Assembly: GCA_051362555.1 (NCBI GenBank)
Contig: CM120649.1
Location: forward strand, 15,004,001-15,068,000
DNA: 64,000 nt
Direction of reading: 5' to 3'
Source: Lingula anatina
Lineage: Eukaryota > Animalia > Brachiopoda
Both the position numbers and the translations under genes were made by a program. This document shows, piece after piece, positions 1,623-64,000 of the stretch. Below the pieces are notes generated by a model, which made no database searches, was not told the origin of the DNA, and saw only the letters and a list, made by a program, of their open reading frames with translations. How positions within the stretch are numbered: position 1 is the stretch's first letter; the number at the start of each line of letters is the position of its first letter.

Positions 1623-1661
<39 letters not shown>

Positions 1662-7990: not shown

Positions 7991-7998
7991 TTATATAA
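7991..7998 (+). promoter_or_regulatory. TATA box of MOXD1-like gene A
   Basis: TTATATAA about 40 nt upstream of the ATG at 8036. Confidence 0.55.
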
Positions 7999-8035
7999 CT
8001 ACATCACATCTCATCACGTACAGACCCTCTGCAGA

Positions 8036-13233: not shown

Positions 13234-13265
<32 letters not shown>

Positions 13266-14863: not shown

Positions 14864-14903
<40 letters not shown>

Positions 14904-21880: not shown

Positions 21881-21923
<43 letters not shown>

Positions 21924-29500: not shown

Positions 29501-29649
29501 TTAAGAGATGTACGAAGGAGTGTCTTTTGTGCATTGATTTTCTAAGTTTTTAATCTTACAAAAAAAAAAAAAAAAAAAAAGATAAAATCAAATCATTTTT
29601 TGGATAACAAGTACGTTAAAAAATTGTACCTTGCATTAAACAGAAAATG

Positions 29650-29685
<36 letters not shown>

Positions 29686-32629: not shown

Positions 32630-32902
32630 TTTACCTAAAATCCACCAGTACAAAGGAGGAGCAGGAAACAGACAAATTAAAAAAAATCACTTTGCACTTT
32701 TTAAATCGAAAGTAGCCAAAATCGCGACTGCGTCTTCGATATGGGACTCCTCTTGCAAAAGATTTTCAAGAAGACATTGGCCACGGTTTTGCGCATTCCA
32801 AGAGAAAAGTAGTATATTAGAAGCATAAGTCAACTGGCATCTTTGTTTTTCTCTTTTAAAAAGCTAGGCCCTATTGGAGGCTTGATTAACTAAAAAATGT
32901 AC

Positions 32903-33049
32903 CTCCTTCATCCCATAATAATGATATCTGTTTAACTAATAAAATATGTCGTCAAATAATCAAGGTGCTGTGGATGTGAGTCAATAACCAAGTATACCTA
33001 TAAAAAACTGATACCAAGGTCCGTTAATATCATGTTTCTCAAATAATTT
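32903..33049 (-). repeat. Local duplicate of RFX exon-4 acceptor region (copy of 31104-31242)
   Basis: CCATAATAATGATATCTGTTTAAC...GCTGTGGATGTGAGTCAATAACCAAGT...ATCATGTTTCTCAAATAATTT is present at both sites. Confidence 0.85.
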
Positions 33050-34336
33050 CATTTAAAAAAATTCTTTTCTGTATACCGCACTGTTCACTAATTTGACAAT
33101 GCCGTAAGTTTAACTTCTTGTTTTATGTTTGATTTTTTCCACTCTCTATTAAATCCAAACTTTTCTATTTTAGCTAGGGCTAACAATTTTTTTTTTTCAA
33201 AAAGTTAAAAATGATGTCATTTCCTGGTCTATTCAGTATCCTTCAGCAAATATATTGGAAAAGTTTCTTTAAAGCTTCTGTTAAGATCTTTATTTATGGA
33301 GGAAACAGAAAAGGAGAAAATGCACTGCCTAGATGTGTTTTAGAGCTGTAATGATATCCTTTTCTGCATTTTTCACATCGTAGTTCCCACCAACCCAGAC
33401 AGCATACACTCTTGATCAAATGTATGTCCTCAATACAACTAAAAACAAGACAATTCTGTAAAAAATTTTATTGTAAGGAGTTTAACATATCTTTATATAA
33501 AACCAAATAATTATTTTATTCTTTAGTCATGACCAGTAATTTACCAGACTGACAGAAATTCACCATCATTTTTTAAATTTTTACATACCGAAGCAATTAT
33601 GTTGCAAACTGTATGGTACTACTATGCCTCGAGTACTTGCATTTCTAAATATTTTGAAGCTCTATATACACTGTACAAACTTCCAGAAAGTTCGCTCTAA
33701 GTTCCACCAATTTAAAAATGGTCATGACAATATCAAAGTATTTAGAAATTGTACTTGTGTTTACCATGGATATCTTTACTCACATCCACAGTGTTACAAT
33801 TTATTTTGATTGTATACAAAGGAGGAGGGATAAACAATGAAGGGGGGCAGGGGTGGCTCACTTTTCCATGTCAATATGGCAGATGTCGCATCCTTATTCT
33901 ACAGAAAAGAAATAAAATGCACCTGGTTAAAGATGACAGAAGCTTCGGAATTCCTGATGAGAAAGAAAGAGTATCAATTCTTTTCCACCCCCCTCCCATC
34001 CTCCTTGAAATCAGAGCTCTGCCTGCAGCATTTAATAGTATTTGCTTAATAAAAAGCAATGCTTGGATGTTTTGTATCACAAGCTTATTGCCAAGCTTAT
34101 TGTATAACTTTTTCCAACATAACATATTTATCACTTTCATCAGACAGCAATCAAACAGTTTTTAAATTATGAAACTGCTAGGGCAATCTGAATTTTTTTT
34201 CCACGAGGAGGTTAGTCACAAGTGCAGTCCAAGTTAATGGTAATTCAATCTCCATTGTGGTCTGTACTTGTTGTATCTTCCATATATTATGTTTCACTGT
34301 CTCTCACAAAGGCGTCCATTGTATGTGATCACCTCC

Positions 34337-37300: not shown

Positions 37301-38895
37301 GCGGGGGTTTTCTCTCTCATGTTAATGTATGCCACTCTAGCAGTTTCTCATAAACTGCTCCACACAGTGGCACAATTATACAACCTTAGCTTTTACTATC
37401 GCAATTAAACAGTCTTGTTATCCTTCAGATGGACCATGATCGATCTAGCAGGAACTGACCTATCTCTGAGGGGATTCTCATTAAATTGTATACGGCTTTC
37501 ACAGCTTAGATGCCTGGCACACCTACTTAAGAAGCTAAACAACAGTTAATTACCCCCTAACAGCTTCAGTAGGCGTACCAGACATAAGAGCCGCTTAAAC
37601 TGAATGCAGTTTTACCAAGAAACCCCCTCAGAGATGGATTGATCCCACTAGATCGATCTAGGTATGGGAACAGGGTCTTAGTGGTCTTAAATGAGTTCTA
37701 TTTACCGTCAGTGCTGGCAGAATTCCACAGTCCAGGAAGGCTCCTTGTAAGTCTGACCTAAATAGTAGTAGACACACAAACACGATCAAATAACATAACA
37801 GAGCATGGATAAAAGTGCCCTTAAAACACATTTTTTCAAATTCTAATTAAATCAGTGTGTATATCTCTAATGTCATTTAACAAATTCATCTTAAATGTGT
37901 TTTTAGATAAAACAATTCTTGCAAAAGTTTTATAAATAAATAATGAAGCTTTAAATAAAAGGCTGAATGTTCGGTTTTAATGTAACTTGATATGAGATTA
38001 ACAATTCATCAGTACTGATAAGAAAAATTCAAGCAAGGTTGTTATATAGCCAGCACTGTGAAATATTTTAGATGTACAACTTTAATTATAATGGGACTTA
38101 CTTCCTCAACTGTTGTAACACTTCTGGCAGCATTCTTAACTTTTTAATGGCTGGCTTGGACTGGTTGTTTAATGCTCTGTCTTCCTACAATAAGAAAAGC
38201 ATCAATTGTTAACTGACATAAATGAATACTTCTATAAAATCTCAGTTTAGTCATTTTAGCCTGAAAAGTCTGTTTCTTTCTTGCTTTTTCTATGTATACT
38301 TTAAACAAAGCAACACGGCACAAAAAATAATACATAAAATAATAATCATAATTATGATAAATAATAATTATCCTTAATTTTGCTGCTACCAACCCAGATG
38401 TGTTATCTGTTACATACTAAGCAAGGAGAAGTCTTTAAATCTAATAACTTCAATTATATCAGTTTCATTTATATCAAACATATTTAATTTTCCCATCAAT
38501 TTATTGTTTTTTTATTCCAAAAATGATCTTACCTCAGCAGCAGTTTTCATCTGGTTAATCAGTGCAGCTATCAAGTCATCATTGTCATTGATGATATCAA
38601 AGTCTTTCCTCTTTCTTCTCCTCTTCCTCATTTCTTCTTTCTTTCTCTCCAACATTAAGTCAAAGTCTGACACAAAGTTACTGTAAAAAGAAGAAATTTC
38701 ACATGAATTTTAATGTCACTGAATACATCACTGAAAACAAAAAACTATTCTAATTTAACCTCTTAGTAACATTTATTATGTCAGACTATACCATCAGCCC
38801 AAAAATACTTAATTATAGTGGATCAAAACATATTAAAACTGATTCTAAGACATAAAAAATTGGTCTTACATTCAAGATTTAACATCTCTCTCAAG

Positions 38896-38935
<40 letters not shown>

Positions 38936-41900
38936 CATGCGTGCGTGTGTGTAACAGGTCCCTAGAACCAGCAGGACACAGTCTTACCCCTTGTCTCCAT
39001 CTTCCACCCCTTCATCATCATCTGACAGCTGAGGTAGGGCAGCCGACGCGTCCCCCTCCCCCTCGGCTGGGGCCTCATTCTCCCCCTCATCATCAGATAT
39101 AACTGGAACAAGAAAATATAGATATATTTCATGTGTTGAATTGTCAGTTCACTTTGTTCAAATAAATATTAATATCCAAAATTATATTTCAAACATATTA
39201 TCCTAGAATTCTGTCCCGTAACTGGATCCTCTTTGCACAAATAATTTCACATAAGTTAATGTGTAAAACTTCATTTCTGCTCATCAGCAAATGGCTTGTT
39301 CAATAACTACATTATATTCAAGATAAAATGTTGATGTTTTCAGAGCTAAATGGTTGTGTAACAAAATTACCTGCTACTTTCTTTTTCTTTGGAGTTTCCA
39401 TGTCTGCATCTTGAAAGCCCTGAAGGAAGAAGTAAATACACAGTTTAATGAAAAACACCCATACATGATAAATATTGGCAGTTTACAACTACATAAAAGA
39501 TAAAAGCATTTGGCACACAAAAGCTATTTTACATACTGTTTTCTGAAAGCAGGAGGCAAAACTGTATCATATAACAAATCATACCTCAAATTCTTCTTCT
39601 TCATCACTAGAGCCAAAGATGTCTGCTATAAGTTCACCAACGTTGGACCTGGAAAAAAGAACAAAATGGATCTACATCAAATACTCATTTCTGAATCAAT
39701 GAAAAATCATAACAACAAGAACAATAGCACTTTACATGATAATAGACGATAAAAAAAAATAATAAGAATTATTAGAACCTTAATTTAACATAAAATGTTC
39801 TTACTCTTTATCACTATCCTCGTCATCGCTGCCCTTTTCAGAACCCTCTTTGTCCAGTGAAACATTTTGACGCTCCTCTTTTGTGTCTAAAGATAAAAGT
39901 AAAATATTCACAAGTTTTCTGACAGAGATTTCTACTTCAAATCTATGAAAGTTTACAAATATTATTTTAATTTTATTTTACTATATTTCTCTTGAAAGTG
40001 CAAAGAAAAAAGTGACAGGAATACAATTCATAGTTGCTCCTTAAACACCTAATGTCTTCTTTGTTATCAACTCACCCAGCTATTTAATAAACACTGAGGT
40101 TATAACTTTACAATGCAATTTAAGATAAAGTGAACCATTTGAATAATCTTTAGTAATATTTTCACCTTTCTCGTCCTCATTTCCAGCTTCAGATTTCTTC
40201 CCTTCGTCACCACTTCTAAACAAATTAAATGAAAACCAAAATATTAAACACAAAATATATTACATACCAATTTTCTCAACTTACTGATGTATAAACTTTA
40301 CAGTAATTATAGTCATTTTTAATAAGAGATGCCAGTGCTAGTAAGTAATGATGCATCTTAAGTCAGTAAAATGTCCAACAGCTTTACTGAGGTATAACTA
40401 ATAACGCAAACTGAAATTCCACAGGTACAATTTCCAGAGAGAGATAAAAAAGTTACAACATCATAACCTTCAAATTGAGCTTACCCTGCCTTTGCTTCCT
40501 CATCTTCACCCCTCCTCCTCTCAGCCTCACTGCCATCCCTGCTCTCTTCATCTTTGTTGCTAGGAGAACGAGGCCCCTCAGCATCACTGCTGGGTGAAGC
40601 TGGGCCCTCTTCAGGTTTCTCCACAGGAGATGCAGGCCCTTCTGCAGCATCTCCTTGGAAACCAGGTGGCGACTGGGGACCTTGGTTACTGCTGCTAGGA
40701 GATGTGGGTCCATCTTTGTTAACTGAATCTTGGCTGACTTCATCCTGAAAACTCGGAGATTGTGGACCCTGGTTACTGTTGCTAGGTGAGATGGGCCCCC
40801 GACTACCATCATCAGGGGACTGTGGCCCCTGGTCACTGTTGCTAGGTGACTGAGGGCCTTGGTTACTGTTGCTAGGAGACTGAGGCCCTTGGTAACTGTC
40901 AACAGAAGACCAATTTCCTTGGGCACTTGGTGATTGTGGTCCCTCACTCACCACCGCAGCATGCGTAGAAAATGGCGGCTGATTTGGAACATATTCTGAC
41001 CTGTTTTCTTCCATCATTGTCTCGCTCCAGGCAACACTATCAAGTTGACTATCTTGAGCACTGTCATACTCAGAGTTTTTCTGGTTATCACCAGCTGTTT
41101 CTCCACTTTCAAAGTCACTCATCCTGCTACTCTGTTGTGAGTCCTGGTTCTGCACCTCCATATTGTCCGTTCTATCCCCTCCATCATCTGATGGACTGTG
41201 TGCTGACCCCTGGCTAGGACTGGCTGGACCTTGGCTATCCTCCCCGCCTGGACTCTGGTGGTCACTACCAGCTGGACAGGCTGGACCTTGGTCATCATCA
41301 CTTTGGTCACTCATGGGACTTGGGGACCTGACCTCTTCCCCTTCCTGACTTCCTTCAGGACTCGGAGATCTTATGTCAGCACCTGCCTGCTCCTCCGCCA
41401 TTGGAGAATCAATTTCTCCATCACCGTCTTCCTCTTCTTCTGGTTGTGGATATTGGTTTGATTCATCCATGTTTGCATTGTCGTTGTCAGAATCTTGGAT
41501 TTCTCCGTCACCATCAGAACCCTGATCTTCCATCGACTCTTCATCTGTTAACAAAGAAATATAGAACAGAAATTTAAGTCCATTTATTTCATTAATGTTC
41601 TGAAAACATAAAAACTGACAGATTCTTTTTTATTTCTTTTTTTTTGCCACTAACCAGATTCAGGTGAGGCTACCTTCAGCTAATTGGAAAGCACAAACTG
41701 CACTCTGTGGATTCACCAAGGTAAAAATGCACTAAATAAAATTTAAAAAAACCAGGACACTTGTTACTTGCATGATTACTCTTCAACTTGAACATCAGTC
41801 TTACCCCTCTGCTGTACATCCCCATCATCAGCTTCCTCTCCAGACAGCTGGCCCTCACTGTCCTCCTCCTGATCTTCACCAGTGTAGGATTCACGGCGGT

Positions 41901-43348
41901 GAGCAGGCAACTCGTTCTCTTCCTCGTCTGCTATCTCTCCTTCCTCCTCCTCATCCTCATCTTCAAAATGTGATCTTCCTATGGAAAATGGTTGTGTTCC
42001 ACCTGGCTGTAGGTTGGAAGAATATTTAGAATGTATTGATCATGTTTGAAAAAAAAATGATTACTCCTACAAAATTCATTTCTTTTAACTGACCACTGTT
42101 TTAATACTTTTCAGTTTATTTATCAAGTTTAATTTATATAAAATGTACATCATAACTGACCTACGCCAGAGCTCTTACAGGTGAAATATAAAATCAATCA
42201 AGTTAAAGTTCAAATGACAAATTAGCATACAAGGAAGACATATCTGAATTCAAAATTAAAGTTAAAACAAGAAACAACAGAAGGGAAAAAGCTTTTCAAA
42301 AACCTCTTTACTGTTTTTAAGGTTAAAAGTCTCCTGTTGTTTGATAAGAACTTGGACTAAAAGCAGTGATAGATTAATAAAATTATTGAGGGGCTGATAT
42401 TGCAGATTTCTGAAGGAATATTATGACAACAAATTGGAGTCTCTGATATAATATAATATAATAGTGTCTAACTTACTGGCTGTGCTTCCTCTAACTGGTA
42501 CCCATACTCTGGCTCATCTTGAAGTGGTGTTCCTCCGCCATCTATAAAATAATCAAAAGATATTAAACATCACTCTGGCAGCAGCGTGCACTTTCACACC
42601 AAGACTCGAGTTCACTTTGGTTTATCAGTATTATTCAACACGTCCACGGCAATTTATTTGAAGATACCAAACGAATCCAAACTCTGCTTTGTGCCTTTCA
42701 CTTATTGGAATTGGAATATTTTAACCATCAGCTTTCTAATTTTTTTAAAATTCATTTATTAATCTTATATGCTGTTGTTACAGAATCAGAAAAACATGTA
42801 CAATATAAATTAATAAAATTAATAATAATATAAAAATATTTACATATAATTAAAAGCAACGTATCTATAGAAAACCATTTTCTTTTAACTCCTGTAAAAA
42901 AAATATTTAAAAAAAAATATAAATGTGCATTGTAAGCGTTTGGTGAAGTCATGGCGTTATAATTTAGGCTGTAGCGTGTTGTCTAGAAAGAAAACAAGAC
43001 CACCAATAATAGCTAAAAATATTGGCAAAAACCTATTTACTTTTACTTTGTGTTTTATCATGGCGTTTGATCTCTTAATACAACTAAATAATACAACGCT
43101 ATCGTGACCAAAAACGCACGAATAGCATGTGCAGTCTAACAGTAAATCTGTCACTTTGTTTGAGAATCTTGCCGCTTTCTTTTTTTAACATCCAAGAGGT
43201 TGTATTATTCCCTTCGTATACACCCTGTATAATCTATTCAATACGAATTCCATTTGTAACGAAATGTATCTTCTTTTCTAGTTCTACTTATATTATTCAT
43301 AAATGAATGATTAAAAGCTAAAACATCACCTTCTTCGCCGCTCGACAT
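34337..43348 (-). CDS. IWS1: Transcription elongation factor IWS1/Spn1, 864 aa, 18 exons
   Basis: Exons 43348-43330, 42541-42477, 42006-41805, 41544-40485, 40215-40166, 39886-39805, 39648-39585, 39419-39371, 39102-38988, 38680-38533, 38184-38102, 37757-37706, 37209-37132, 36873-36756, 36342-36234, 35294-35235, 34927-34813 and 34462-34337. Hallmark motifs [91 protein letters not shown] and [13 protein letters not shown]. Confidence 0.96.
37430..37680. mobile_element. Dispersed MITE-like repeat in an IWS1 intron
   Basis: Imperfect inverted ends (GATCGATCTAG..ATCTCTGAGGGG / CCCCCTCAGAGATGG..CTAGATCGATC). Homologous to 9485-9624. Confidence 0.6.
40555..40950 (-). repeat. Coding 30-bp-based tandem repeats (GPxSPS) in IWS1 exon 4
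   Basis: Repeated GGTTACTGTTGCTAGG...GGCCC units encoding [10 protein letters not shown]-like decamers. Confidence 0.85.
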
Positions 43349-44744: not shown

Positions 44745-47700
44745 TCTCATCCAAGTCAGTCATTAAAACAGGGAGCAAGGAGATGGTTAAAAAAATAAGT
44801 CTTTAATGCTCCCCACCCACCCGGTTCAGAGGCTTATGTGTTTCTGAGTGTTATAGCACCCGACTTAAAATCCGCCTCCTTTGTACCTCTGCCCAGCACC
44901 TCTTTCACCAACTGAAGGGATATGCAAGGGTCTCTGCAGGTACAGGTGCAAGGCTAACACATGCGCACATGTTGATATAACGGATACAAGAAGGTCCGAT
45001 TGGGGTAGAGTTGGGATGGGTGCCATCAAGAAAGCATATTGAGTGGGACACGCACAGGCGCATTTCCCCAGTTGGAGCACGCCAAATTACAGTACCGTGG
45101 TGAAAATTGCAGCATATTCAATGTACACCACAATAATTATTAGAAATGATTTATCTAGTCTCTATAAATGTACCTGCTATATTTTCCCTTTCCATCCTGT
45201 AACATCTCAAAGAATATATCATTTTATATTTCAGTGTGCCACAGACCGTTGCATGGTTTTCCCGGTCGATCCTACAATCCATCAGAAGGTGCTGGATCTC
45301 GTGCGACAGGAGACCAAACTCATCAATTTCTTCTTCAAGTTTGTCGGCTATTCGTCGCAAGATAATCCTTTGCTGCTGAACATGTCAGAGTTTTACCGCG
45401 GAAACACGTGGTCGCGCGCGCACTCCCGCCATGGCCGAACACTCCTGACGCTTGCATTTAATTACGACATACTATCATTGACTATGTTGAGCATTGGGCG
45501 AGTGGATATGACTGTCAATTTAGACGATTCACCACGTGGTTGTCTCGCGGGATTTAGTGAGATGTGCAAGGTGCAGAAAATTCGACAACTTTTGTTTTAT
45601 GACCTCATTGTTAATGGGACTTCTTCATCGGTAACCAAAGATGATTATATTTGTAATCCGGTTATTAAACGAGTAAAGGATCACGGTCATTTTGTGTATA
45701 AATGCTGCACGTGGTTTAACGGGGAAATGCTTTGCACGGATCAACTAAAAGACGGCTGGGTGACGGTGTTGGACTACATGATAATCACATGCATGTACCT
45801 GGTCATTTTGTTTGCGCCACTTGCAGCCCCTCGATGGGTTTACACCTTTGCCAAGGACCAAATGACATACGTTTTAAAGTTAGGAGACAATGGCGGACCA
45901 AAGAAGTTACAGTTCACTGTTCACGTGTCAACGAAAGATCCGGACAAAACTTACTTGACCGCGCGCCACGTGCTCGAAATCCGTGACTTAAGAACTTTTC
46001 CAAAACTCACTAGGAAGATTCGAGAATGGGAAAGAGATAAAAAGCTTGACCAAGACATCCGTGTTGAAACATCAGAGCTTCATCTTGCCGTTGACTTGGA
46101 CAAGACTTTAACAATGCACAACGTGCCTATAGGATTCCCGCACTTTATCAGCCGCATGTTTTGTCAATGCAAATTAGCAAAAGAACCCGGATGTTCCAGT
46201 TTTTGCCGCTCCAGTGTGTGGGGTTGTCTACCGAATACGGACGAAATATATTGTACTTGGCTTCATGTTGGGAAATGTTTGGGTATAATGATTCTCGTAG
46301 CATGCGCGTTGCCACTGCCATTTATTATACGACTTGGACTTTACTTTTTATACGAACAGGACGAGGTATTGCTGCGAAAGGCCGCGCTGCATTCGTTGCA
46401 CCTACATGAAAATTACGAAGAAAATTTGCTTCAATATCTCACGCCCTTCCACCCAGCGCTTGTCTGTGCGTACCTGTTTTACTTTTTATGTTGCACCGTA
46501 TATTGTCTTGCCTACAATAATGTTAGAGGGACGGGAATGGTGAGACGAATTGTGAAGACGTCATTCGAAGACTTAATGGGAATAAAGTACGGACAAGTGT
46601 TACAGAGACTGGTTGCCGTAGTGTTATTGCCGTTAGAGAGGTTCGGCGTTTGTGGCTTCCTCTTTGGTCTCCTATACTGGCCTGTTGTCGTTCCTGTGTG
46701 TCTCATCATGGTTCCGTTTTATTGCCTCCCAACACTGTACCTCTCCATAAGGATGCTGTTTAATTCACAGATGTCGCTGCAACGCTTCAGATCAAAACCG
46801 GACCAAGACAAGGGGCAAAGGTTCGAGAGGCCGTCAGGAAGTCAGTTAAAAAGGAATCTGGTTCATGGAATGAAACGCGTTCATAATCTCCTTGGCAACA
46901 TGAACATAACTCACAACGATTCTGAGCATCATCACAAGTATCGCCCCCACGTGAGTGATATGTCCTGTTACGGGAGAACGCGGAAGATTGTTCTTCACCT
47001 TGCAGCTGCCTTCGTATGCATATGCTTTCTTTATTCAGTTCTCATTATGTTAGCAGAGAGTGCCTATTTAGGTACGGAGGTATTTGCCCTGACTTTGATG
47101 GGGGCTATCATAAACGCTGGCACCACATTGAAATTCCTGTCCCTGGTGGCCCTGATTGTTCTTTACGCCTACGACGCATTAAATGACGTATACAAAACGT
47201 ACCTAGAGCTAAACCAAAGCATCGTGACGACAGTGTATAATTTGGCAAATGAGGTTGCCTATGGCGGTATTGAGCAAGGTAGTGGGGAGACTAATAAACC
47301 AAGAACGGCATTTCAGCTGAACCTTGCTGAGCACAAGGTCGGCAAGAGGGAAAGTTACCAACCTGATGGACTCTCCACCAAGGGATCGAGGAGAAACCAT
47401 TACCATGTGAACAATCTCTGTCTGTTGATGGATTCCAACGACACTGCTCGTATACCGATAGACCTGTTTTACCGGATGTGCGAAATCGACATCTCCCACT
47501 CCCCTGGGCCGATAGAGAGGAGGGTGTGGGGTGCGTTGGGGTACCTCTTTTTGATCACCTTGTTCATTGGGTTTGTGTTCATAGTCGTGGGGACGTTTGG
47601 GAACCTGTATAACATTTCAACTACCAACCAAACTCTGGCATCGCTGGCTGGGGGTGCACTGCCGTTCTTCCTGAGGAGCTTCTGCAAGCCGCCAAAGTTG

Positions 47701-48330
47701 GATGGAAGCTACAAAACTGCGATCAGCTTTAGGCGGCGATTTGACGAAACCATAGCCACCTACTCACAGTCGTGGCCCATTGCAGATTTAGATGTGACCG
47801 AAGTGAAGGAAACCGAAGACGGTTCATGCAGCGAATGGGCGCCTATTTGTTACGTCGACAGCGCGGTCGCTGTACAAGAAACGGGCGCTCCTGTACCAAT
47901 GAAGGAGCTGGTTGTCGAACAAAAACCAAGCAACTTGTTTGATAGGCTCACCGACGCTATACGGTCAGGTTTAGGGAGTAGAGGAAGCTTAGACAGTATC
48001 TCAAGCTCTGATGATGACGGCAAGTCGAATTCATTGCTTGCATTCAGTGGCGTGAGCTCCGTTGCTGACATCACTTCCGGTGAGAACGGTGTTATCTTTG
48101 ACTTCGCAGACGGGTCCGTAACCATGGTAGATTCACGGCCTGATATACTGATAAAAATTGATAAGCGAACTTTGGCCAAACTGAATGGAAATCACCCGGA
48201 TGTTAAACGGAAGTTACGTCATCACTATGATGAAATAGACCTAGGCAATTCAGACGACGTACGCACATTTAATAAAATATCAGACAACAATGACTGCGTT
48301 TCCAATGAATCGGAAGGCACCGATTTGTAA
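44166..48330 (+). CDS. Uncharacterised multi-pass membrane protein, ~1086 aa, 2 coding exons
   Basis: Exon 44166-44330 encodes a signal peptide (MNAVKLTVAIFACCVSLFDYVGSEA) with donor CAG|GTAAGC. It splices in phase 0 to the 3.1-kb exon 45235-48330. The protein has a Cys-containing ectodomain, ~9-11 hydrophobic segments and a Ser/Asp-rich C-terminal tail. No family was recognised. Confidence 0.85.
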
Positions 48331-49790
48331 ATGGTTGAATTGTATATAATATTAATAGTAGTGGTTGTATAGGCCTAGGTTGATTTTATAACAATCCTAT
48401 CTTACCGTTTTAAAATGTTCACAAGTGATATGTGGGAAAGAACCCATCGCGCCAACCAAGTGTTTTTTTTTCCTTAATCACACAGTAGTAGAAAACATTT
48501 AAACTCTAAATAAATGGAGAGACTCCACCTGAGTGCTGCATAATTTAGCTTGTGCCTTGAACTGAATATAGAAATGGAAGAAAAGCCAAAAATTAAGAGA
48601 GATAATATACAAACTAATTTACCTGACAGAAAGAAATAATGAGATTAAATTCATAATATACTGTTTCAACCATCAACGAGTGTTATAATTGTCTATATGT
48701 AATATTTTTATTTATGTGAAATCATTTTATTGAAAATAAACTTTGAAGGGTGTCATTTTTCCACCAAATATTAATCATTTTCCAAATTTGTGTCCCACTT
48801 CTCTAAACGTATATACTTTACAATAACTATGAATACCTGATTGTTTATTTATGAACTGATCAGAAAAAAAAAAACGTTTTGTCACAGTTTCTTTTATTTT
48901 CTACGTCAGCTCAAATTACAGCATTTTTATCATAGTCATATCAACTTAGTGAAAAATTAACGTTTGTGCCACATGGAAAATTGAAACACGTTTCGCTATC
49001 TTTCAGTTTGGACACGTGAAAATTTCCATTAATATAAATGTGCACCTTTTAAAGTAAGCGTTTAGCCAACATTATAAAAGTAATACATACTGATTAATAA
49101 ATAAAGTAAGAAAAAGACAAAAAAAAAGCTTCATAAGCTGATTGTACATATACTTTCAAAGCACACTGTGGCCTTAATGTTAAAAATGCGTAATAAAAAT
49201 AAAATTGCATTGCACTTCTATGTACATCTTTACACTTTGATTTTTCAAAATATGCTTTAAAAGTCTCTGATATGTGGAAAATAAAACCAAACGCGATTTT
49301 CAGCAAAGTGAATATGGAAAACAAACAACTCCAAAAACGAGCGACACTGAATTATGCACTCAAAAAAACATGCAAAGTAGGCCTATAGACATGCAAATAG
49401 CCTATGTAAGTTGCACATAGCAGTTCACAAATACATATTTCATGGCATTAAAAATATCTTTTGTACAACACAGCTACTTTTCTACAATACAATACAATAG
49501 TCAACATGATCAATCTTTCGGCATCAAGTTTAATGCTATTGAATGTAACGACACACTCATTGGCAACAGAAAAATAAAAAAGTACTAAAAAGGCATAATA
49601 ATTATACACAGTCTGTATAAAAGGTTAGATACGTAGATACTGAGTTCACTTAACAAAAACAGATCACCACTGTCTTGATGATATAAAACATCGGTGGGAG
49701 GTCCTTTTATACTTGTCCCTTAGTGCTAAAAACCAGTAGTTTTCTGAAGCTGGTTAAGTACGAGTGTTTTGGCTTGTATCCTATCACAAT

Positions 49791-49948
49791 CAGGGGCGGA
49801 TTGAGTCCGTCTTCTTGAAGACGGCCAGATTTTCAAGTCTATATTGACAGATATCTAATTTTTCTGACTGAAGACGGTCATAAATGGACGACTGATCAAA
49901 ACAGGTAATTTGGAAGACCGTCAGAAAATATCTCTGGATCCGCCACTG
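49791..49948. mobile_element. MITE (CAGGGGCGGAT TIR family), copy 2
   Basis: Flanked by an ACAAT duplication. Absent at the paralogous site (~61954-61958). Confidence 0.88.
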
Positions 49949-50057
49949 ACAATAAAACTTTAAAAGAAATAAACATGTACTTAAGTCAACTTTACAGTGG
50001 GGGTCGCAATGAAACCGGTCGTCTGTTGAGGACGGCTATGAATCTATTTCAGGTGTC

Positions 50058-51069
50058 CTACATAAAAAGTGGCGCGATTACTGCTACAAATACCAAGGAC
50101 AGTGTGGTCATGGAAGCTTGCAGAAGTGTTGATCCCGAGGAGGCGCGAGCCAGCCTATCGTATTTCCCTCTCAATTCCTGTAAGGAGAAACGAAAGGAAA
50201 ATGATCAAGACTAAGATGAGTGCCTCTCGCAAGCGAAGTAAAATGTACTGTTTGTATTTTGTACTTAATGTGAAAGTTATCATTTCTCTCTCTCTCTCTC
50301 TCTCCCACACACACACACGCACACACACACTGAGTAACATTTACCATAACTACCCCAAAAATATCTATACAAATACAATGTTAACCACGCATTTCCATTT
50401 CCGTAAATCATGATAATATCAATTTGTCGATTAAAAATCAACAGATGTGACTTACTCTGATGCCACTCTTAAGGGACGCAACATCAGCTTTACTTTGGCT
50501 TAAATCTCCCCGCAGAGCACTTATCTTTCTGTACATTTCCTGTCGCAAGTCCTGTAATATTATCATTTTATCATATTTTATTTTGTATAGATTAAATTGG
50601 CAGACCTCTGTATAAATATCAATAAATAATATCAATTACGATATTAATAAAGCAATTGTATTAATATAAACGTCAGGAAATTGATTTTCTGTATATTCAC
50701 GTTATGTACAACGAATGAAGCTAAGCCATAAAAGTTATTTAAAGGGGGGGGGCTTTTGAAATAACCTTTTTGGATATTTTTGTAAAAAAATGAGAGTATC
50801 AAATGCAGTTGTTACACATAAAACATTGACGTCACAATAGTCGATTGAAATACAGGAGCCTGCTGTCAACGTGTCCAGCGTAATAACGACTATATTTGTA
50901 AACTCAAGTGCCCAAGAAAGGTTTACCGTTTTACTCCGGTCCAGCCTATCGTATTTTCCACTCAATTCCTGTAAGGAGAAACGAAAGGAAAATGATCAAG
51001 ACTTAGAAGAGTGCCTCTCGAAAACGAAGTAAAATGTACTGTTTGTATTTTGTACTTTAATGTGAAAGT

Positions 51070-51126
<57 letters not shown>

Positions 51127-51845
51127 CGACTAACATTTACCATAACTACCCCAAAAATATATATACAAAAACAATGTTAACCACGCATTTCCATTTTTAA
51201 TTATGATGTTATCAATTTGTCGATTAGAAATCAAAATGTGACCTACTCTGATGTCACTCCTAATGGACGCAACATCAGCTCCACTTCGACTTAAATCTCC
51301 CCGCAGAGCACTTATCTTGCTGGACATGTCCTGCTGCAAGTCCTGAAATATTATCATTTTATCATATTTCATTTGGTATAGCTTAATTTGGCAAACCTCG
51401 GTATTAATATCAATTAATATACGATATTTATATAGCAATCGTATTAATATTTGATTGATTTTCTGTATATTCACGTTATGTACAACGAATGAAGCTAAGC
51501 CATAAAAGTTATTTAAAGGGGGGCCTTTTGAAATAACCTTTTGGGATATTTTTTGAAAAAAATGGGAGTATCAAATGCAGTTGTTCCACATAAAACGTTG
51601 ACGTCACAATAGTCGATTGAAATACAGGCTGTCAACGTGTACAGCGTAATATAATTACAATATTTGTAAACTCAAGTGCCCCAGAAAGGTTTACCGTTTT
51701 ACTCCGGTCCAACCTATCGTATTTTCCTCTCAATTCCTGTAAATGAAACGAAAAGGAAAATGATCATTCAAGACTTAGATGAGTGCCTCTCGAAAGCGAA
51801 GTAAAATGTACTGTTTGTATTTTGTACTTTAGTGTGAAAGTTATC

Positions 51846-51900
<55 letters not shown>

Positions 51901-54900
51901 ACTAACATTTACCATAACTACCCCAAAAATATATATACAAAAACAATGTTAACCACGCATTCCTATTTCCGTGAATCGTGATGATATCAATTTGTCGATT
52001 AGAAATCAAAATGTGACCTACTCTGATGTCACTCCTAATGGACGCAACATCAGCTCCACTTTGGCTTAAATCTCCCCGCAGAGCACTTATCTTGCTGGAC
52101 ATGTCCTGCTGCAAGTCCTGTAATATTATCATTTTATCATATTTCATTTTGTATAGATTAAATTGGCAAACCTCGGTATTAATATCAATTAATATACGAT
52201 ATTTATATACAGTAGCAATCGTATTACTAATTGATTGATTTTCTGTATATTCACAACGAATGAAGCTAAGCCATAAAAGTTATTTAAAGGGGGCCTTTTG
52301 AAATAACCTTTTTGGATATTTTTTTGTAAAAAATGAGAGTTTCAAATGCAGTTGCTACACATAAAACGTTGACGTCACAAAAGTCGATTGACATACAGGC
52401 TGTCAACGTGTACAGCGTAATATAATTACAATATTTGTAAACTCAAGTGCCCCATAAAGGTTTACCTTTTTACTCTGGTTCAGCTTTGCTTCAAGAAGAT
52501 CCAGTCGATCCCTACTGCGTCCACTCGCGTCATTTAAACTGTGTCTGATACTGGAAAAATTCTGTTAAAATAGAAAAATAATTAAATGCCGAAGCTTAGG
52601 ATTAAACATGCTCTGAACACTGTCGCTCAAGTCCAACAACAGGACAAATAAGTTTATTATTTTTATAGTTACATTTTTACTTATCTTTGAAAACACTCTC
52701 ACTGTTAGTAGCCCCTTTACTTTTACAAACATAACATTTGTTTATTTTAAAGCCTGCGCCTAGAAAAAAAAAAAAAAGTATTATTATTCTCATTTGCTTA
52801 ACTTACTTGCTGCATTAACAGCTCCAGCCTGTCCATCTTCCTAAAAGCCTCGGCTGTGCTGTTATCGTTGTTATTTGCCTTCCCACCCAATCTTCCCACT
52901 TCTGCTACCAGTAACTGGAATACGTAATTACATATATCTTTTATAAATTGAAGCTGTGCAAAATGTTATGACGATTATTTCTTTAACATACATGTACATG
53001 TATATGAGGGACAAAAATTATTGCAATGCTGATCTGCATTTTTGCATCAATTCAACAACCTTTTCTTGCAGTTATCAAATACTATGTATCAATGCGTAAA
53101 ATATTGAAAGAGATTAAAAAAAAAAAAAAACAGCTGCTGACTTCTTGTAGCAATTATAAACAAGGCGCGACCATTCAAGATGGCGTCGATTCAATGAACA
53201 TGAGAAGTTGCAACACTCACCTCGTGATCTTGCATTAGACTCTGAAATGAAAAGAAAAATAATTTGTTATCAATTTATTTAATGCAATTTCCAAATATTA
53301 CTTAAAGTTTAATAAAAAAATCTTTTGGAGACATCATTTGATTTAATACATGTATATTCTGTACTCATCTAACGCATTGCCCGGAAATCATGATATTATA
53401 CATGCCAAACGTTTGGATGACGTGATGTGGTGTTTAATACCACTGGAAGGAAAATATTCAACAAAAGTCGCTTTTATTTAAAACAAACTATGACATAAAT
53501 ACCGTTGCCCGTTTACACATGACAGAGATCTGATCAACCATAGCCATATATGACGTCAAAGAAAAAAAAACTGACTATTCAAATGTATCAGATTGCTAAT
53601 ATGCAAAACTACAAAATGTGATTTTCTCTTGCCTTTAGATCATTAAAACTGTCATTCAGCAGTCGCTTGTATTCCTCCAATTGCGCCTTTGTAAACCCGT
53701 GCGATTGTGACAGATCCTAAAATACGAACAGATTGTGGGTTCTTTCAATTCAAATTTAATAATATCTCACATAAAATTTATTCTTAATTTTTAGTATTTA
53801 ATGAGCATGCCAATTTTACTTTTCCATGCGCGCCTCAAATTTTACACAGTGTAACATCTGAGATTACTGTGACGTCACAATGTCAATCATCGAAGGCTTG
53901 TTTATTTCAAAACGAAACCAGACATCTTGTATTTTGTGGTATTACGCTCTTTTCACAAATACAATCAACAAGAAAAATATTTACTTTTTATGATATACAG
54001 GCTCCAACTTAAATTCAGGATGAAATGTAAATGTAGCAGCTTGTTAATGCTCAGAACAATTAAATTAATGTGTTTCTCTTACTGTTAGATGGTTTAAAAA
54101 ATCTTCCATCTGCCGGGCATGTTCTACCAACTGTGCCTTTGTTTTCTGGTGCGCTTGTGTCAGATCCTAAATTGAGAACAGAATATCATTATGTGCTGCA
54201 GGTTCTCTCAATTCAATTTCTAAATTATCTTTTACAGTTTCGAGCATATTTCTGTGTGAAGTAATCATTAACGGGTGCCAATTTGTTTTTCAAACCTGTA
54301 CTGCTAAAATATCACACCAAGCATGCGACAGCTGAGATTACTGTGACATCACTTTGACAACCATAGAAGGAATGCACATTTTAAAACCACAGCATGACAT
54401 TTTGAAAAAACACATCTTGTATTTTGTGTAACGCTTTTTCACATGTGCGATCAACCGCATAATAAGATTATTAACGTTTTATCATACACTACCCTGAGTG
54501 CCAGAACCACTGTGAAGCTAGATTGTTAACTATTGAAACGTTTTCACGCGATAGCTTCACAGTGGTATTGCTGATATGGGTTACATATGAAATCAAGATC
54601 GAGCTGGCAATACCGAAATCTAGAACCTAGGGTATCATACACAGGCTTCAACTTCAAATCGAGGAGTGAAGGAATTGTTGATTCTATCAACATTTAAAAA
54701 AAAGTCCGAAAGACGTTTGGCTCGTAACAATACTCACTTTAATAGAAGCATTATAATGACCCATCAGTATGCGGCGTTCTTGTGCAATGCTCAGATCCTG
54801 GAAAATTAATATGAATATATAGAGTCTATATAAGAGAGTTATCCGTCTTAAGTAACCGTTCAGGACACGTCAGCCGTTTCTATAACTCACATCTACCGAC

Positions 54901-55617
54901 ACGTAATAGGTCGACTTTGGCAATGACAATGCACAGCAGTTAAATCATATGAATAGTAAAACAGAAGGAATTTTTTTTTTTTTTTATTCAGAATAAAATT
55001 TGGATTATTGAATAAGTTTTCTTTGTGTATCTTATACATGAACGTTAGAAGCAGATAAAAACAGAGATTACAGAGGACCTTTTTAAATAAAACCTATACA
55101 AATGCGCAAATAATACTCAAATATCCATATTTTTAGTTAAATTCAGAAGACTTTAATCTCTATTACACAAAAATTCTAAATTCTATTACAAAAAATTCTA
55201 AATTCTATTACACAAAAATTCTAAATCCAACCATAATCTACGTACTTTTGTGCCGACCACAGCGTACTTCTGAATAGCCGACGTCACAGTACTGTTGAAA
55301 AGTCGAGATTTCAGCTCCGCTACTTCCTTGTATAATTTCGCTTCCTGTGACCTCAGTGGACACACAGAGATGAAATCGTAGAGGTACAACCCCGCGAAAA
55401 CGAGCAAAACCACTCCGAACACTTTAGCGCAAGTCTTTATGGCCTTTCCTTTCTTCGAGCTGGCCCAAGGGCGACGACGTAGACGTTTGGAAGCGCGGGT
55501 TTCGTGAGGCGTTAGGGAGTCGAAACTGGTTCGCGATTTGTCCTCATAGTCGGAAGCGCAGGTGCTCCCGTTTTCCTCCCACACAGGTGAATCGGGGAAA
55601 ACGTCCTCTCCCGACAT
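50058..55617 (-). CDS. Tetherin/BST2-topology protein (type II TM - coiled coil - GPI signal), paralogue 1, 438 aa, 13 phase-0 exons
   Basis: Exons 55617-55246, 54797-54738, 54166-54083, 53716-53633 (GC donor), 53241-53221, 52914-52807, 52561-52466, 52117-52022, 51736-51695, 51342-51247, 50968-50927, 50551-50456 and 50177-50058. A ~63-aa tail with a basic patch, TM VFGVVLLVFAGLYLYDFISV, a heptad-rich ectodomain with N-x-S/T sites, and C-terminus ARASSGSTLLQASMTTLSLVFVAVIAPLFM*. The gene structure is seen directly; the tetherin-like label is topological inference. Confidence 0.85.
50151..52485. repeat. Three ~770-790-bp tandem units, each carrying a 96-nt exon
   Basis: Units ~50151-50940, ~50941-51710 and ~51711-52485 share exons (DLQQDMSSKISALRGDLS..), introns and the (CT)n(CA)n tract. 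Confidence 0.92.
54490..54634. mobile_element. 145-bp non-autonomous DNA element with 8-bp TSD
   Basis: Termini TACCCTGAGTGCCAGA / TCTAGAACCTAGGGTA, TSD TCATACAC at 54482-54489 and 54635-54642, and an internal hairpin ACCACTGTGAAGCTA...TAGCTTCACAGTGGT. Absent from the homologous intron segment at ~53990-54000. Confidence 0.8.
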
Positions 55618-57560: not shown

Positions 57561-58129
57561 CGAAACCATGACTAGTAAATATTTGCCACTGTCTATTTTA
57601 AACCGTGCCCCAGGGTCAAGTTACAGCGATCACTGCGCATGCCCCGGTCATTTCAATAATAGAAACTTCTCTCTGTTGTTATTTAGATGAACGTTTTTAG
57701 TGTTAATTTCTGAATAGGAGTGAAGTGACTGATTTGTAGACCTAGAGCTGATCTAGTTGACGCCGTCTATTTCTAATCTTGGTTAAGAAAGTAAAGCAAA
57801 ACAGCAATCAAATACACTAAGAGAATCGATGTGGTTCAGGTTCCCATTTTACAGGGGAATCCCCCGCCATCTCCCCCCCCCCCCCCCCCCCCCATTAAAA
57901 GATGGTACTAGTAATCATTTTTAAGATGCTTCTTTTATTTTGAAGTAATCATATGTGCTAATTAGTTTTTTTTCCTTTGTTTCTAATCTTTTATCTTAGG
58001 GAGAAATTATAACGTTTATTGAGGACCACAATGCGCGCAAAATAGGCCCTATACCTAGGCCTATAATGGGGTATTGCACGGGAAGGTTTGACCATGTTTT
58101 ATTTGCTGGGCAACGCAAACTGAATAACT

Positions 58130-58298
58130 CAGGGGCGGATTGAGGCTGTCTTCTGGGCCTTCTGGAAGACGGTCAGATTTTCAAGCTTACATTGATGGGT
58201 ATCCATTTTTTTTCTGCCAGAAGACGGTCAAAAATAGAGGATGGATCAACAAAGATAATTTGGAAGACTGTCAGAAAATATCTCTGGATCCGCCCCTG
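58130..58298. mobile_element. MITE (CAGGGGCGGAT TIR family), copy 3
   Basis: Reverse-complement homologue of 6042-6209 with the same TIRs. The TSD is not clean. Confidence 0.85.
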
Positions 58299-58315
58299 AA
58301 TTAACGAACAGATAT

Positions 58316-58895: not shown

Positions 58896-59816
58896 GGCTA
58901 TGAGAACGCTCGACCACGATTACCTTAATCGTCTATGAACTGTACAAACAAAGTGCACCACAAACAGTTACACTGAATCTACCTTAAATTGCTGATAGGC
59001 CTACTGTTGGCTTCTTCGATGTTGTTTCGCTTTCTAAAACGGTACAGAGTTATTTGCTCTGAGCTTTCCTCTTCACTAACTTCACCCTGGTAAATACACA
59101 ACTGCCAGCAGCTCTTGTAAGCTACGTAACTGTGACCTAACAGGCAATAGACCAATTAAATGCAAGCACGTTCCGAAACCAACATTTGTAGAATCTACGC
59201 ATGCTCAAAGTTCTGGAATTTTTAAAGGGTATTCCCCTTTGCAGTAAATATAAGTACATTAAGTAATGCTGACGTGTCACTGTGTATTTAAAGTTATTTC
59301 AACTTATTGAACATTTATTAATATCTACACCCAAAGTTCAAGTCAAACATATGTGCCGAGCAAAGCGAAAGGGAGATAAGAAATAACAAAACGTACACTG
59401 GTAGCATCAATATCCATATTCAAATCACTGATAATAATTAAACCAACCCTGAAATGAAGCGTGAGCGTCTCTAATACATAGGCCTACGTGAGTCTTTAAA
59501 CCCCGTTTTATGCTAAATGTTGTAATTTTGTTTTACCGTGACTCCATGAATCAATCCAACTAAAGTTGTGGCCCTGATGGGTGATATTCATTTATGGTCA
59601 TTCCAGATCATTCAATTTCCTGTGTTCTGCAAGCTTTTGTTTTTCATTATTTTTTCCCCTGATTGACATCTCCCAATCTCTCTCTCTCTTTCTCTCTCTC
59701 TCCCCCCCCCCCCCCCCCCCAGTGTTGAGACACTTCATCCATGGGTCTAATTCAGATGATAACATTTGATGTAGTATTGTCAAAATTTCAAACCTAAACA
59801 ACTGGTTTTCTTCCAG

Positions 59817-60361
59817 TGGGAACAATCAAATATTCGAAACCAGCCACATGGAAACCAATGCAAGACTTTGTCCACATCGCCTTTATAGAAATAAGTGCTG
59901 CGGCGAAGGAAAAGTATGTAGGGGATTTCATGACACATGGTGAACCATATGATTGTAGCTTGTTTATGGGTGATTTGGGGGATCTAGAAGGTGAAAGAGT
60001 CCAAAAAGATGGCGCCGCTACTGGATATACTGAGGGGATTGTTGTTGGCAACCTTGACATTAACGATTTACTTAAAGGCTATTCTAATCTTCTGTTGGTG
60101 AAATCGGTGGGAGACAAGCCTTTCTCTCGGGAAGGTGACAGTGGTAGCGTTGTCGTTATGAAGTCTGACTGTGCCCCGAACTCCTTGTTGGCAGTTTCGA
60201 TGATTCACAGCGGACTGAATTTAAGGGAAGAGCTAATGTCAAGCGAATCTTCTTATTCACTTACATTTGGCCTCCGTAGAGCTATTACTGATGCTGAGTG
60301 CACACTTGGAGAAAAATTTACGCTTCAACAAAGGTTTAAGGTTGCATCCTACTTCATCTAA
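59817..60361 (+). pseudogene. Orphan terminal exon of a trypsin-like (PA clan) serine protease domain
   Basis: Acceptor TTTTCTTCCAG|TG. The open frame contains VQKDGAATGYTEGIV, FSREGDSGSVV and AVSMIHSG. No upstream coding exons were recognised, and the expected catalytic Asp position reads VHIAFIEI. Confidence 0.6.
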
Positions 60362-60999: not shown

Positions 61000-62289
61000 T
61001 TTCTGCGTCAGCTCAAATTACATCATTTTTTTCATAGCCATATCAACTTTACAAAAAAATCATATCGTTTGTGCCACATGGAAAGTCGAAACACGTTTTG
61101 TTAGCTTTCAGTTTGGAAACGTGAAAATTTCCATTAAAATAAATGTGCACCTTTTAAAGTGAGCATTTAGTCTACATTATAAAAGTAATAAATAACGATT
61201 GATAAATGCAGTAAGAAAAATACAAAAAAGCTTCATAAGCTGATTGTACATATACTTCCAAAGCACATTGTGGCTTTAATGTTAAAAATGCGTGATAAAA
61301 ATAAAATTGCATTGCACTTCTATGTACATCTTTACACTTTGATTTTTCAAAATTGCATTGCACTTCTATGTTCATCTTTACACTTTGATTTTTCAAAATA
61401 AACCTTTAAAGTCTCTGATATGTGAATAATACATGTAAAACCAAACGCGATTTTCAGCAAAGTGAATATGGAAAACAAATAGCTCCAAAAACGAGCGACA
61501 CTAAATTATGCGCTCACAAGACCTTCAAAGATGGCCACATGTAAGTTGCACATAGCAGTTCACAAATACATATTTAAGGGCATTAAAAATATCTTCTTTT
61601 GTACAACACAGCTACTTTTCTACAATACAATACAATACGATACAATACAATACAATACAATACAATACAATAGTCAACATGATCGATCTTTCGGCATCAA
61701 GTTTAATGCTATTGAATGTAATGACACACTCATTGGCAACAGAAAAATAAAAAAGTACTAAAAAGGCATAATAATTATACACAGTCTGTATAAAAGGTTA
61801 GATACGTAGATACTGAGTTCACTTAACAAAAACAGATCACCACTGATGATATAAAACATCGGTGGGAGGTCCTTTTATACTTGTCCCTTAGTGCTAAAAA
61901 CCAGTAGTTTTCGGAAGCTGGTTAAGTACGAGTGTTTTGGCTTGTATCCTATCACAATCAAGCTTTAAAAGAAATAAACATGCACTTAAGTCAACTTTAC
62001 AGTGGGGGCTCGCAATGAAACCGGTCTTCTGTTGACGGCTATGACACTAAATCCCGTTTACAAGTGTCCTACATGAAAAGTGGCGCGAATACTGATACAA
62101 ATAGTAAGGGCAGTGTGGTCATGGAAGCTTGCAGAAGTGTTGATCCCGAGAGGGCGAGAGCCAGCCTATCGTATTTTCCTCTCAATTCCTGTAAGGAAAA
62201 ACGAAAGGAAAATGATCAAGACTTAGATGAGTGCCTCTCAAAAGCGAAGCAAAATGTACTGTCGGTATTTTGTAATTTAATGTGAAAGT

Positions 62290-62360
<71 letters not shown>

Positions 62361-64000
62361 TAATTTTTGCCATAATTACCCCAAAAATATCTATACAAAA
62401 ACAATGTTAACCACGCATTTTCATTTCCGTTAATCACGATGAAATCAATTTGTCGATTAGAAATCAACAGATGTGACTTACTCTGATGCCACTTTTAATG
62501 GACGCAACATCAGCTTTACTGTGGCTTAAATCTCCCTGCAGAGCACTTATCTTGCTGGACATGTCCTGCTGCAAGTCCTGTAATATTATCATTTTATCAT
62601 ATTTCATTCCGTATAGATTAAATTGGTAGATTTCTGTATTAATATCAATTAATACATGACATTAATATAGCAGCTGTATTAATATAATCGTCAGGAAATT
62701 GATTTTCTGTATATGCAGATTGCACGTTACAACGAATGAAGCTAAGGCCATACAAGTAATTTAAAGGGGGCCTTTTGAAATAACCTTTTTGGATATTCTT
62801 TGTAAATAATTAGAGTATCAGATGCAGTTGTTGCAGATAAAACGTTGACGTCATCTACTGAAGTACTGGTTGACAACGTACATGTATACAGCTTAATAAT
62901 GACAATATTTGCATAAATAAGTGCTCCAGAAAGGTTTACCGTTTTACTCTGGTCCAGCTTTGCTTCAAGAAGATCCAGTCGATGCCTACTGCGTTCAATC
63001 GCGTCATTTAAACTGTGTCTGATACTGGAAAAATTCTGTTGAAATAGAACAAAAATTAAATGCCGGAGCTTAGGATTAAACATGCTCTGTACACTGTCGC
63101 TTACGTCCAACAACAGGACAAATAAGTTTATTGTTTTTTTTATATTCTTGATTTATCTTTGAAAACACTCTCACTGTTAGTAGTACCTATACATACTTGA
63201 CATTTGCTTATTTTAAAGCCTCTGGCTAGAAAAAAAAAAGTATTATTATTCTCATTTGCTTAACTTACTTGCTGCATTAACAGCTCCAGCCTAGCCATCT
63301 TCCTAAAAGCCTCAGCTGTGCGGTTGTCGTTGTTATTTACCTTCCCACCGAGTCTTTCTACTTCTGCTACCAGTAACTGGAATACGAAATGTCACATCTT
63401 TTACAAATTGAAGCCTTGCAAAATGCTACGACGATTATTTCTTTAACATACATGTATATGAGGGACAAAAATTACTGTAATACTCATTCGAATTTTTGCA
63501 TTAATTCAACATCAGCAATATCTTTTTGCAGTTATCAAATGATATGTATTAATGCGTAAAATATTGAAAGAGATCTTTAAAAAAACAGCTGCTGACTTCT
63601 TAAGCTTGTAGCAATTATAAACAAAGCGCGACAATTCAAGATGGCATCGATTCAATGAACACGAGAGGTTGCAACACTCACCTCGTGATCTTGCATTAGA
63701 CTCTGAAATGAAAAGAAAAAATAATTTGTTACCAGTTTATGTTATGCAATTACCAAATATTACTTAAAGTTTAGAGAAAAAGTTCCTTTGGAGACATCAT
63801 TTTATTTAATATATTCTGTACCCGTCTTACGCGTTTCCCGGAAACCATGATATTACACATGCCAAACGTGAGGATTAGGTGACGTGGTGTTTAATACCAC
63901 AGGCAGGAAAATATTCAACAAAAAATCGCGTTTATTTAAAACAGAAAATGACATAAATACCGTTGCCCATTCACACATGACAGTGATCCGATCAATGCAA
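61000..64000. repeat. Segmental duplication, copy 2 (continues past window end)
   Basis: Collinear with 48895-53545, but lacks the MITE and two of the three tandem units. Has a private 46-bp tandem duplication at 61303-61394. Confidence 0.92.
62069..63702 (-). CDS. Tetherin-topology protein paralogue 2 (3' five exons; 5' part lies beyond the window)
   Basis: Exons 63702-63682 (SLMQDHE), 63376-63269, 63035-62940, 62577-62482 and 62188-62069 (ELRGKYDRLALALSGSTLLQASMTTLPLLFVSVFAPLFM*). Splice sites are intact and there are no stops. Confidence 0.85.

Follow-up and report, generated by a model that had tools for sequence, protein, structure and literature searches.

The window analysed here, a stretch of 64,000 nucleotides from the brachiopod Lingula anatina (contig CM120649.1 of assembly GCA_051362555.1, forward-strand positions 15,004,001 to 15,068,000), contains a minus-strand gene at 50058-55617 whose product is predicted to combine a cytoplasmic tail, one transmembrane (TM) helix, a long coiled coil and a C-terminal glycosylphosphatidylinositol (GPI) signal. 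A preliminary description, made from the letters alone, had proposed a convergent or deeply diverged invertebrate counterpart of tetherin (BST2/CD317). We describe the gene and its expression, the likely architecture of the protein, its paralogue, neighbours and relatives, and consider what such a protein might do.

Gene structure and expression

Reading of three frames yielded 13 coding exons on the minus strand, running from the ATG at 55617 to the stop codon at 50058. Joined, they encode 438 residues with a sole, terminal stop and none internal, exactly the exon number, length and end points first proposed. All 12 introns are phase 0 and have pyrimidine-rich AG acceptors, with GT donors in eleven and a GC donor in one. 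A search with exon 1 found RefSeq entry XP_013388239 (P0001), the 'uncharacterized' product of Lingula anatina LOC106157207, which is also 438 amino acids (aa) long and matches without gaps at 414/438 residues (24/438 differ); the window gene is accordingly either a Lingula haplotype of LOC106157207 or very closely related to it.

Exon 1 (55246..55617, aa 1-124) encodes a 65-aa cytoplasmic tail with a basic patch and Cys63, the predicted TM helix at about aa 66-85, Cys86 and the start of the ectodomain, including a sequon at N108. Exon 2 (54738..54797, aa 125-144, sequon N140) is backed by read joints and by the gene model. It is followed by two 28-aa modules, the four-heptad exon 3 (54083..54166, aa 145-172), which is identical to exon 4 at 14/28 positions, and exon 4 itself (53633..53716, aa 173-200), behind which the GC donor lies. 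Exon 5 (53221..53241, aa 201-207) is a 21-nt micro-exon corresponding to a single heptad, identical in the tandem paralogue described below and with both joints in reads, while exon 6 (52807..52914, aa 208-243) has a predicted hinge at about aa 219-226. Two sequons lie in exon 7 (52466..52561, aa 244-275), together with one R-h-x-x-h-E motif, of a kind associated with trimers, at aa 262. A 32-aa repeat exon then occurs three times, as exon 8 (52022..52117, aa 276-307, with a contig record among its support), exon 10 (51247..51342, aa 322-353, differing from exon 8 by 2 nt) and exon 12 (50456..50551, aa 368-399, both joints in reads). Alternating with these are two chimeric 14-aa exons, exon 9 (51695..51736, aa 308-321, present in the RefSeq model) and exon 11 (50927..50968, aa 354-367, both joints in reads). 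Exon 13 (50058..50177, aa 400-438 plus stop) supplies the end of the coiled coil, a predicted omega site at Ser413 (Ser-Gly-Ser), a spacer and an uncharged hydrophobic tail. Splicing from a donor inside exon 13 (50093) to a candidate alternative last exon (49402..49473, minus strand; 23 aa plus stop) would do away with the hydrophobic tail. The window keeps the frame of this exon open, and the arrangement matches that of a database isoform, P0003, whose splicing removes the tail. At the other end of the gene there is probably no upstream signal peptide: the RefSeq protein begins at the same Met, and the ATG follows an in-frame stop located just inside a likely acceptor.

The gene is real and expressed. 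Three raw RNA runs (X2, X5 and X8) and one contig set, mapped to 49900-54950 and hence to a stretch lying downstream of exon 1, support 10/12 introns, nine by joints and the first by a contig that breaks off at 54797, where exon 2 starts, and whose loose end consists of the end of exon 1, linking both exons. Read counts in X2/X5/X8 are 1/0/24 for the joint of exons 2/3, 2/3/20 for 3/4, 2/3/25 for 4/5, 2/2/29 for 5/6, 5/1/31 for 6/7, 1/1/8 for 7/8, 6/0/11 for 10/11, 10/0/11 for 11/12 and 6/2/15 for 12/13; the 7/8 joint (all runs) and the 10/11 and 12/13 joints (X8) were placed 1-3 positions off, mostly with 1-2 unmatched letters between the sides. The GC-AG intron after exon 4 (donor at 53632; joint 53241-53633, ends CT..GC) is read-confirmed in 3/3 raw-read runs. 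The proposed splicing is thus borne out for most of its length, leaving the 8/9 and 9/10 joints, which belong to repeat exons and do not appear among the 15 of 20 joints listed; no single read or contig in the mapped stretch spans the TM exon to the last exon. Inside the gene span read depth tracks the exons, 16+18 X8 reads at 50078 cover the tail codons, and in X2 and X5 the first mates of joint reads lie on the plus strand, as expected of minus-strand RNA in most stranded libraries. A splice artefact is ruled out by the RNA joints together with the gene model.

Two deep bins at 49900-50068 and 54463-54631 are filled mostly by reads whose loose ends are unrelated, which suggests dispersed repeats. 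A dispersed repeat of ~170 bp is present at 49790-49949, 58129-58299 and 6041-6210; its part at 49906-49948 attracts hundreds of RNA reads with unrelated flanks, and a second such element lies at ~54585-54634. In X8, five reads join the end of exon 6 (52807) back to the start of exon 2 (54797; 'goes back 1991'), as would arise from circular RNA or from a copy in which exons 2-6 are duplicated.

Predicted protein architecture

Every motif quoted in the preliminary description is found in the protein, namely the basic patch, VCPL, six ectodomain sequons, ASSGS and the terminal hydrophobic stretch. Hydropathy peaks internally at aa 67-85 (Kyte-Doolittle score 2.05) and terminally at aa 420-438 (2.04), with no peak in aa 1-45. 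Net charge is +11 over the 25 residues before the TM helix and +1 over the 15 after it, and under the positive-inside rule a basic flank stays cytoplasmic. Six sequons lie in the ectodomain, where shuffling predicts 1.83 (p=0.004); that of a Lingula paralogue, P0002, likewise has six against 1.17 expected, four of them in common with the window gene and two at new positions. By the positive-inside rule, flank charge and sequon excess point to a type II topology with a lumenal ectodomain, and support a single TM helix placed after a cytoplasmic tail without a signal peptide, as first suggested. An N-out topology with a cytosolic rod is disfavoured by the same two observations. The cytoplasmic tail has a single tyrosine, Tyr24, and is without YxY, YxxPhi or acidic dileucine motifs.

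The ectodomain comprises 328 residues with a heptad pattern and is free of proline over aa 90-410. Hydrophobic residues recur with a period of 3.55, and the score of aa 90-410 was matched by 0/1000 shuffles, consistent with the heptad-rich rod envisaged earlier; for aa 90-124 alone, the heptad signal is not significant (p=0.076). A single-sequence AlphaFold model is almost all helix, at low confidence (mean predicted local distance difference test 56.8, predicted template modelling score 0.31), and a trimer prediction of aa 227-412 scored 0.22, below the mark of 0.32. The juxtamembrane cysteine had been pointed out earlier. This residue, Cys86, is the only lumenal cysteine and is replaced by glycine in P0002, which means that dimerisation through disulphides is not conserved.

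A C-terminal GPI-type signal, with predicted attachment at Ser413, is suggested by a rule that we constructed from the GPI consensus, in agreement with the preliminary description. The rule is passed by the window gene, its tandem paralogue and P0001, and also by 3/757 other stop-terminated frames of the window; all 78 other proteins compared failed it, but these were mostly prokaryotic and so provide no matched control. The gene, its tandem paralogue and P0001 all have Ser413-Gly-Ser with 25 residues behind it; when the X8 reads are included in the comparison, residues 413-415 are constant while 411-412 vary.

Exon duplication and a tandem paralogue

The repeat exons belong to an intron-exon unit of ~775 bp, present in three tandem copies at 50150..52482. 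Each additional unit consists of one 32-aa exon and one 14-aa chimeric exon, the 5' part of which resembles exon 13 and the 3' part exon 7, so that the two extra units lengthened the rod by 2 x 46 aa in frame. Both 46-aa duplications are recent. The gene illustrates coiled-coil growth, in which in-frame intron-exon duplication gives rise to chimeric exons that preserve heptad phase.

At 62069..63702 the minus strand carries the 3' half of a tandem paralogue, which continues past the end of the window. It includes exons 5, 6 and 7, one repeat exon and exon 13 with the same GPI-type tail, and matches the RefSeq fragment LOC106177974 (P0004). It has a single ~775-bp unit and splice sites as in the window gene. 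Between the two copies there are no indels in 438 exon nucleotides and 26 in four introns, where 9.7 would be expected in the exons at the intron rate (P=6e-5). Non-synonymous and synonymous differences (pN/pS 0.071/0.102) give a ratio below 1 that is not distinguishable from 1 (Fisher p=0.29). Among those differences of the X8 reads that were considered, 20/27 altered codons are non-synonymous. RefSeq holds three loci, LOC106157207, LOC106157202 and LOC106177974, of which the last two look like truncated models. This combination of a conserved frame with fast residue change fits a loosely constrained structural rod as well as it does an immune gene.

Relatives and genomic neighbours

Word-index protein searches (one of which scored the top 7998 candidates) returned P0001 and P0002 only, with no homologue beyond Lingula. 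A phmmer search against 1.84 billion representatives gave 77 matches, comprising two Lingula proteins, 74 coiled-coil matches (aa 156-432, 15-35% identity) and one repeat match (aa 6-35); among the 75 non-Lingula matches, 0/9 looked up were a tetherin relative by name. These databases hold few lophophorates, and confinement to Lingula is therefore a detection limit rather than proof. The comparison with BST2 and PLVAP proposed at the outset gave no match among the Pfam families listed: BST2 (presumably PF16716) and PV-1 are absent from all 19 families for P0002, all 15 for P0004 and the best 25 of 49 for P0001 (remainder E>=0.01). Pfam otherwise returned generic coiled-coil families, of which only DUF1664 (PF07889) passed its cut-off, with 48.8 bits for P0001 (cut-off 34.6) summed over repeated coiled-coil stretches and 20.2 for the single-repeat P0004; we read this match as probably one of coiled-coil composition. 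No BST2 chain occurs among 23 PDB sequences at E<=10. The Pfam scans found no C-type lectin domain after the neck, as type II lectins of the ASGR/CD209 kind would have, the gene ending instead in its hydrophobic tail. Foldseek with the low-confidence model gave nothing at E<=0.001, and ESM Atlas gave no usable feature match for the full protein (0.77-0.78 for aa 40-245 only). No description of an invertebrate tetherin-like protein was found in the literature, a survey that did not cover invertebrate screens within the key primary tetherin papers. As far as these comparisons reach, no known family claims the protein and none of its relatives is found outside Lingula.

Neither CILP2 nor PLVAP is among the identified neighbours within the 64 kb, where 10/15 scanned frames are without a family and the side upstream of the paralogue falls outside the window. 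Those identified are of two kinds, RFX and DOMON/copper-monooxygenase. At least two of the latter (DBH/MOXD1-like) stand in tandem at ~7985-26000 (+), and the RFX gene occupies ~26500-42000 (-), with exons for the RFX DNA-binding and BCD_RFX domains at 31538-31732 and 29150-29374; it may also include a long frame, acidic and rich in Ser/Pro, at 40484-41629 (-), unless that is a separate gene. Adjoining the coiled-coil gene, an open frame of 1095 codons at 45043-48330 (+) is rich in hydrophobic stretches and matches no Pfam family at E<=0.01, as in an uncharacterised multi-pass membrane protein. Between both paralogues lies a 187-codon trypsin-like frame (59798-60361, +) with weak, below-cut-off matches to Nal1_C (E=6e-5) and peptidase S64 (E=0.002). 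The exons at ~319-4640 (-) encode what looks like a secreted protein, by eye resembling an apolipoprotein, in which amphipathic helical segments recur; two scanned frames gave no Pfam match.

Possible functions

We tentatively favour, at just short of an even bet, the explanation that the Lingula protein is a type II glycoprotein with a coiled-coil rod and a likely GPI anchor that tethers the animal's own membranes or vesicles, its layout likely having been reached independently. In such a tether, the basic tail would set the N-in topology, the ectodomain would be N-glycosylated and form a parallel coiled coil of two or three identical chains, up to ~49 nm long if fully helical, and the last 25 residues would be exchanged for GPI at Ser413. 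One anchor could enter a membrane that is budding or apposed and the other stay behind, so that vesicles or a neighbouring membrane would be held. The natural cargo would most likely be the animal's own vesicles or surface membranes, and enveloped virions might be caught likewise if the protein reaches their budding sites. Tetherin, too, holds exosomes (PMC5033606, PMC12712889). Its action, as had been noted at the outset, follows from topology rather than sequence. An artificial TM-coil-GPI protein restricts virion release (PMC3989765), and the layout can therefore suffice.

Several points weigh against the vesicle tether. Avian TMCC-L, with both anchors predicted, had no significant antiviral activity (PMC10617486), so the layout alone is not enough. 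Exosome tethering requires tetherin homodimers (PMC12712889), whereas the lone lumenal cysteine of the Lingula protein is Gly in P0002. The GPI call comes from our own consensus rule, and isoform P0003 is without the tail and fails that rule. Most mapped reads, finally, are only 90-95% alike to the window, so that splice support comes partly from other alleles or paralogues; X8 in particular is from another allele, population or paralogue.

Were both anchors to sit in one membrane, the rod would act as a surface spacer or microdomain picket (in microvilli, glycocalyx or secretory epithelium), perhaps as a headless derivative of a type II lectin neck. We think this unlikely, though not by far. 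The rod is long and predicted to be heavily glycosylated, the motif at aa 262 would suit such a neck, and there are weak matches to Lectin_N over TM and neck (E=0.003, 17.9 bits vs cut-off 28.3) and, in ESM Atlas features, to MCEMP1-like proteins (0.77, inside the shuffled range). Tetherin also has structural roles, in the apical actin network and the Golgi (PMC3989765). However, the Lectin_N and MCEMP1 matches are below significance, and if both ends sat in one flat membrane, a rod of 35-49 nm would have to fold back or lie flat. That the protein is a dedicated, infection-induced antiviral factor, convergently trapping budding enveloped virions as tetherin does, we doubt rather more, despite the full tetherin layout predicted from its sequence, tandem paralogues (two in the window, three RefSeq loci), exon duplication that varies rod length, and fast protein change as measured by pN/pS, the X8 codons and the 24 RefSeq differences. 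A ratio below 1 that cannot be told apart from 1 is as compatible with relaxed constraint as with an arms race; the tail is without YxY or YxxPhi; of the 14 ISRE-like (interferon-stimulated response element) words in the window two lie upstream, which is no enrichment; and reads are present in all three raw-read runs. Equally doubtful is the bolder statement of it, in which brachiopods invented tetherin independently: a fast-changing, tandemly duplicated TM-coil-GPI family would capture enveloped viruses as they bud, and exon duplication would tune the length of its rod.

The existence of isoform P0003, together with its open frame in the window, would suit a protein with one anchor only or a different second one, its tail being a second TM helix or swapped for the alternative exon, and the whole an ordinary type II coiled coil of the PLVAP, GOLM or lectin-neck kind. 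BST2's own tail has reportedly been argued to be a TM segment. This account is improbable, however, as no charged residue follows the hydrophobic tail, which runs to the stop, the small-residue site and its spacing fit GPI in two gene copies, X8 reads cover the tail codons, and in the paralogue the homologous alternative exon, as read, is out of a comparable frame. PLVAP is about 440 aa long, a length near that of the Lingula protein, which might suggest genuine, if deeply diverged, homology to the vertebrate PLVAP/BST2/TMCC(aT) family. Vertebrate tetherin orthologues themselves share little sequence (PMC9599465 and PMC10617486). We nevertheless regard such descent as very improbable: neither the Pfam families listed nor the PDB sequences include BST2, the identified neighbours are RFX and DOMON/copper-monooxygenase genes, no homologue was found outside Lingula, and the present length stems from recent duplications. 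The convergent half of the preliminary proposal stands, since no family claims the protein, whereas descent from tetherin is left with neither a BST2/PV-1 match nor a CILP2/PLVAP neighbour.

A protostome protein with the tetherin layout and no detectable shared ancestry bears on whether that layout alone suffices in nature and on how long the rod can be, and its two natural lengths (346-type and 438 aa) and tail-less isoform form built-in controls. If vesicles rather than viruses are held, vesicle tethering would be the more general use of the design.

Comparison with tetherin and other double-anchored proteins

Tetherin is defined by its TM-coil-GPI layout and carries its GPI at Ser161 (PMC3989765), and its orthologues, placed in vertebrates, are recognised by structure and by their CILP2-PLVAP position (PMC9599465 and PMC10617486). 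The Lingula protein appears to share with it a cytoplasmic tail, a type II TM helix, a coiled-coil ectodomain with sequons and a GPI-type signal, and paralogue duplication is found in both. Unlike tetherin, it has an ectodomain of 328 aa rather than ~115, about three times longer, one non-conserved lumenal cysteine rather than three, no YxY motif, 13 exons and no sequence match. Short vertebrate tetherin isoforms also are without YxY (PMC3989765). The three layout features are present, but homology, synteny, cysteine conservation and the tyrosine motif are lacking, and the protein is therefore not a tetherin.

The preliminary description took the double anchor as the mark of vertebrate tetherin. 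The definition in PMC3989765 accords with this, but the same source lists other proteins with TM and GPI anchors, namely PrP (as CtmPrP) and, outside vertebrates, ponticulin (Dictyostelium), Sm23 (Schistosoma) and NcSRS2 (Neospora). The Lingula protein resembles these in its predicted double membrane anchor. To our knowledge, in none of the four is a single TM helix separated from GPI by a long coiled-coil rod.

With tetherin's neighbours TMCC(aT)/CCDC194 and PLVAP/PV-1 the protein has the tail-TM-coiled-coil plan in common, but it shows no sequence match to them, and theirs is a vertebrate locus; PLVAP, as far as we know, is without GPI. The long and short avian isoforms TMCC-L and TMCC-S, with and without a terminal hydrophobic region (PMC10617486), recall P0001 and P0003. 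Type II C-type lectin necks (Lectin_N, PF03954) and MCEMP1 likewise present a tail, a TM helix and a heptad neck built from small repeated exons, although the matches are weak and below cut-off, and unlike the lectins the Lingula protein has no lectin domain, a GPI-type tail replacing the head. It is thus not a member of the BST2/PLVAP group, though it may work as tetherin does.

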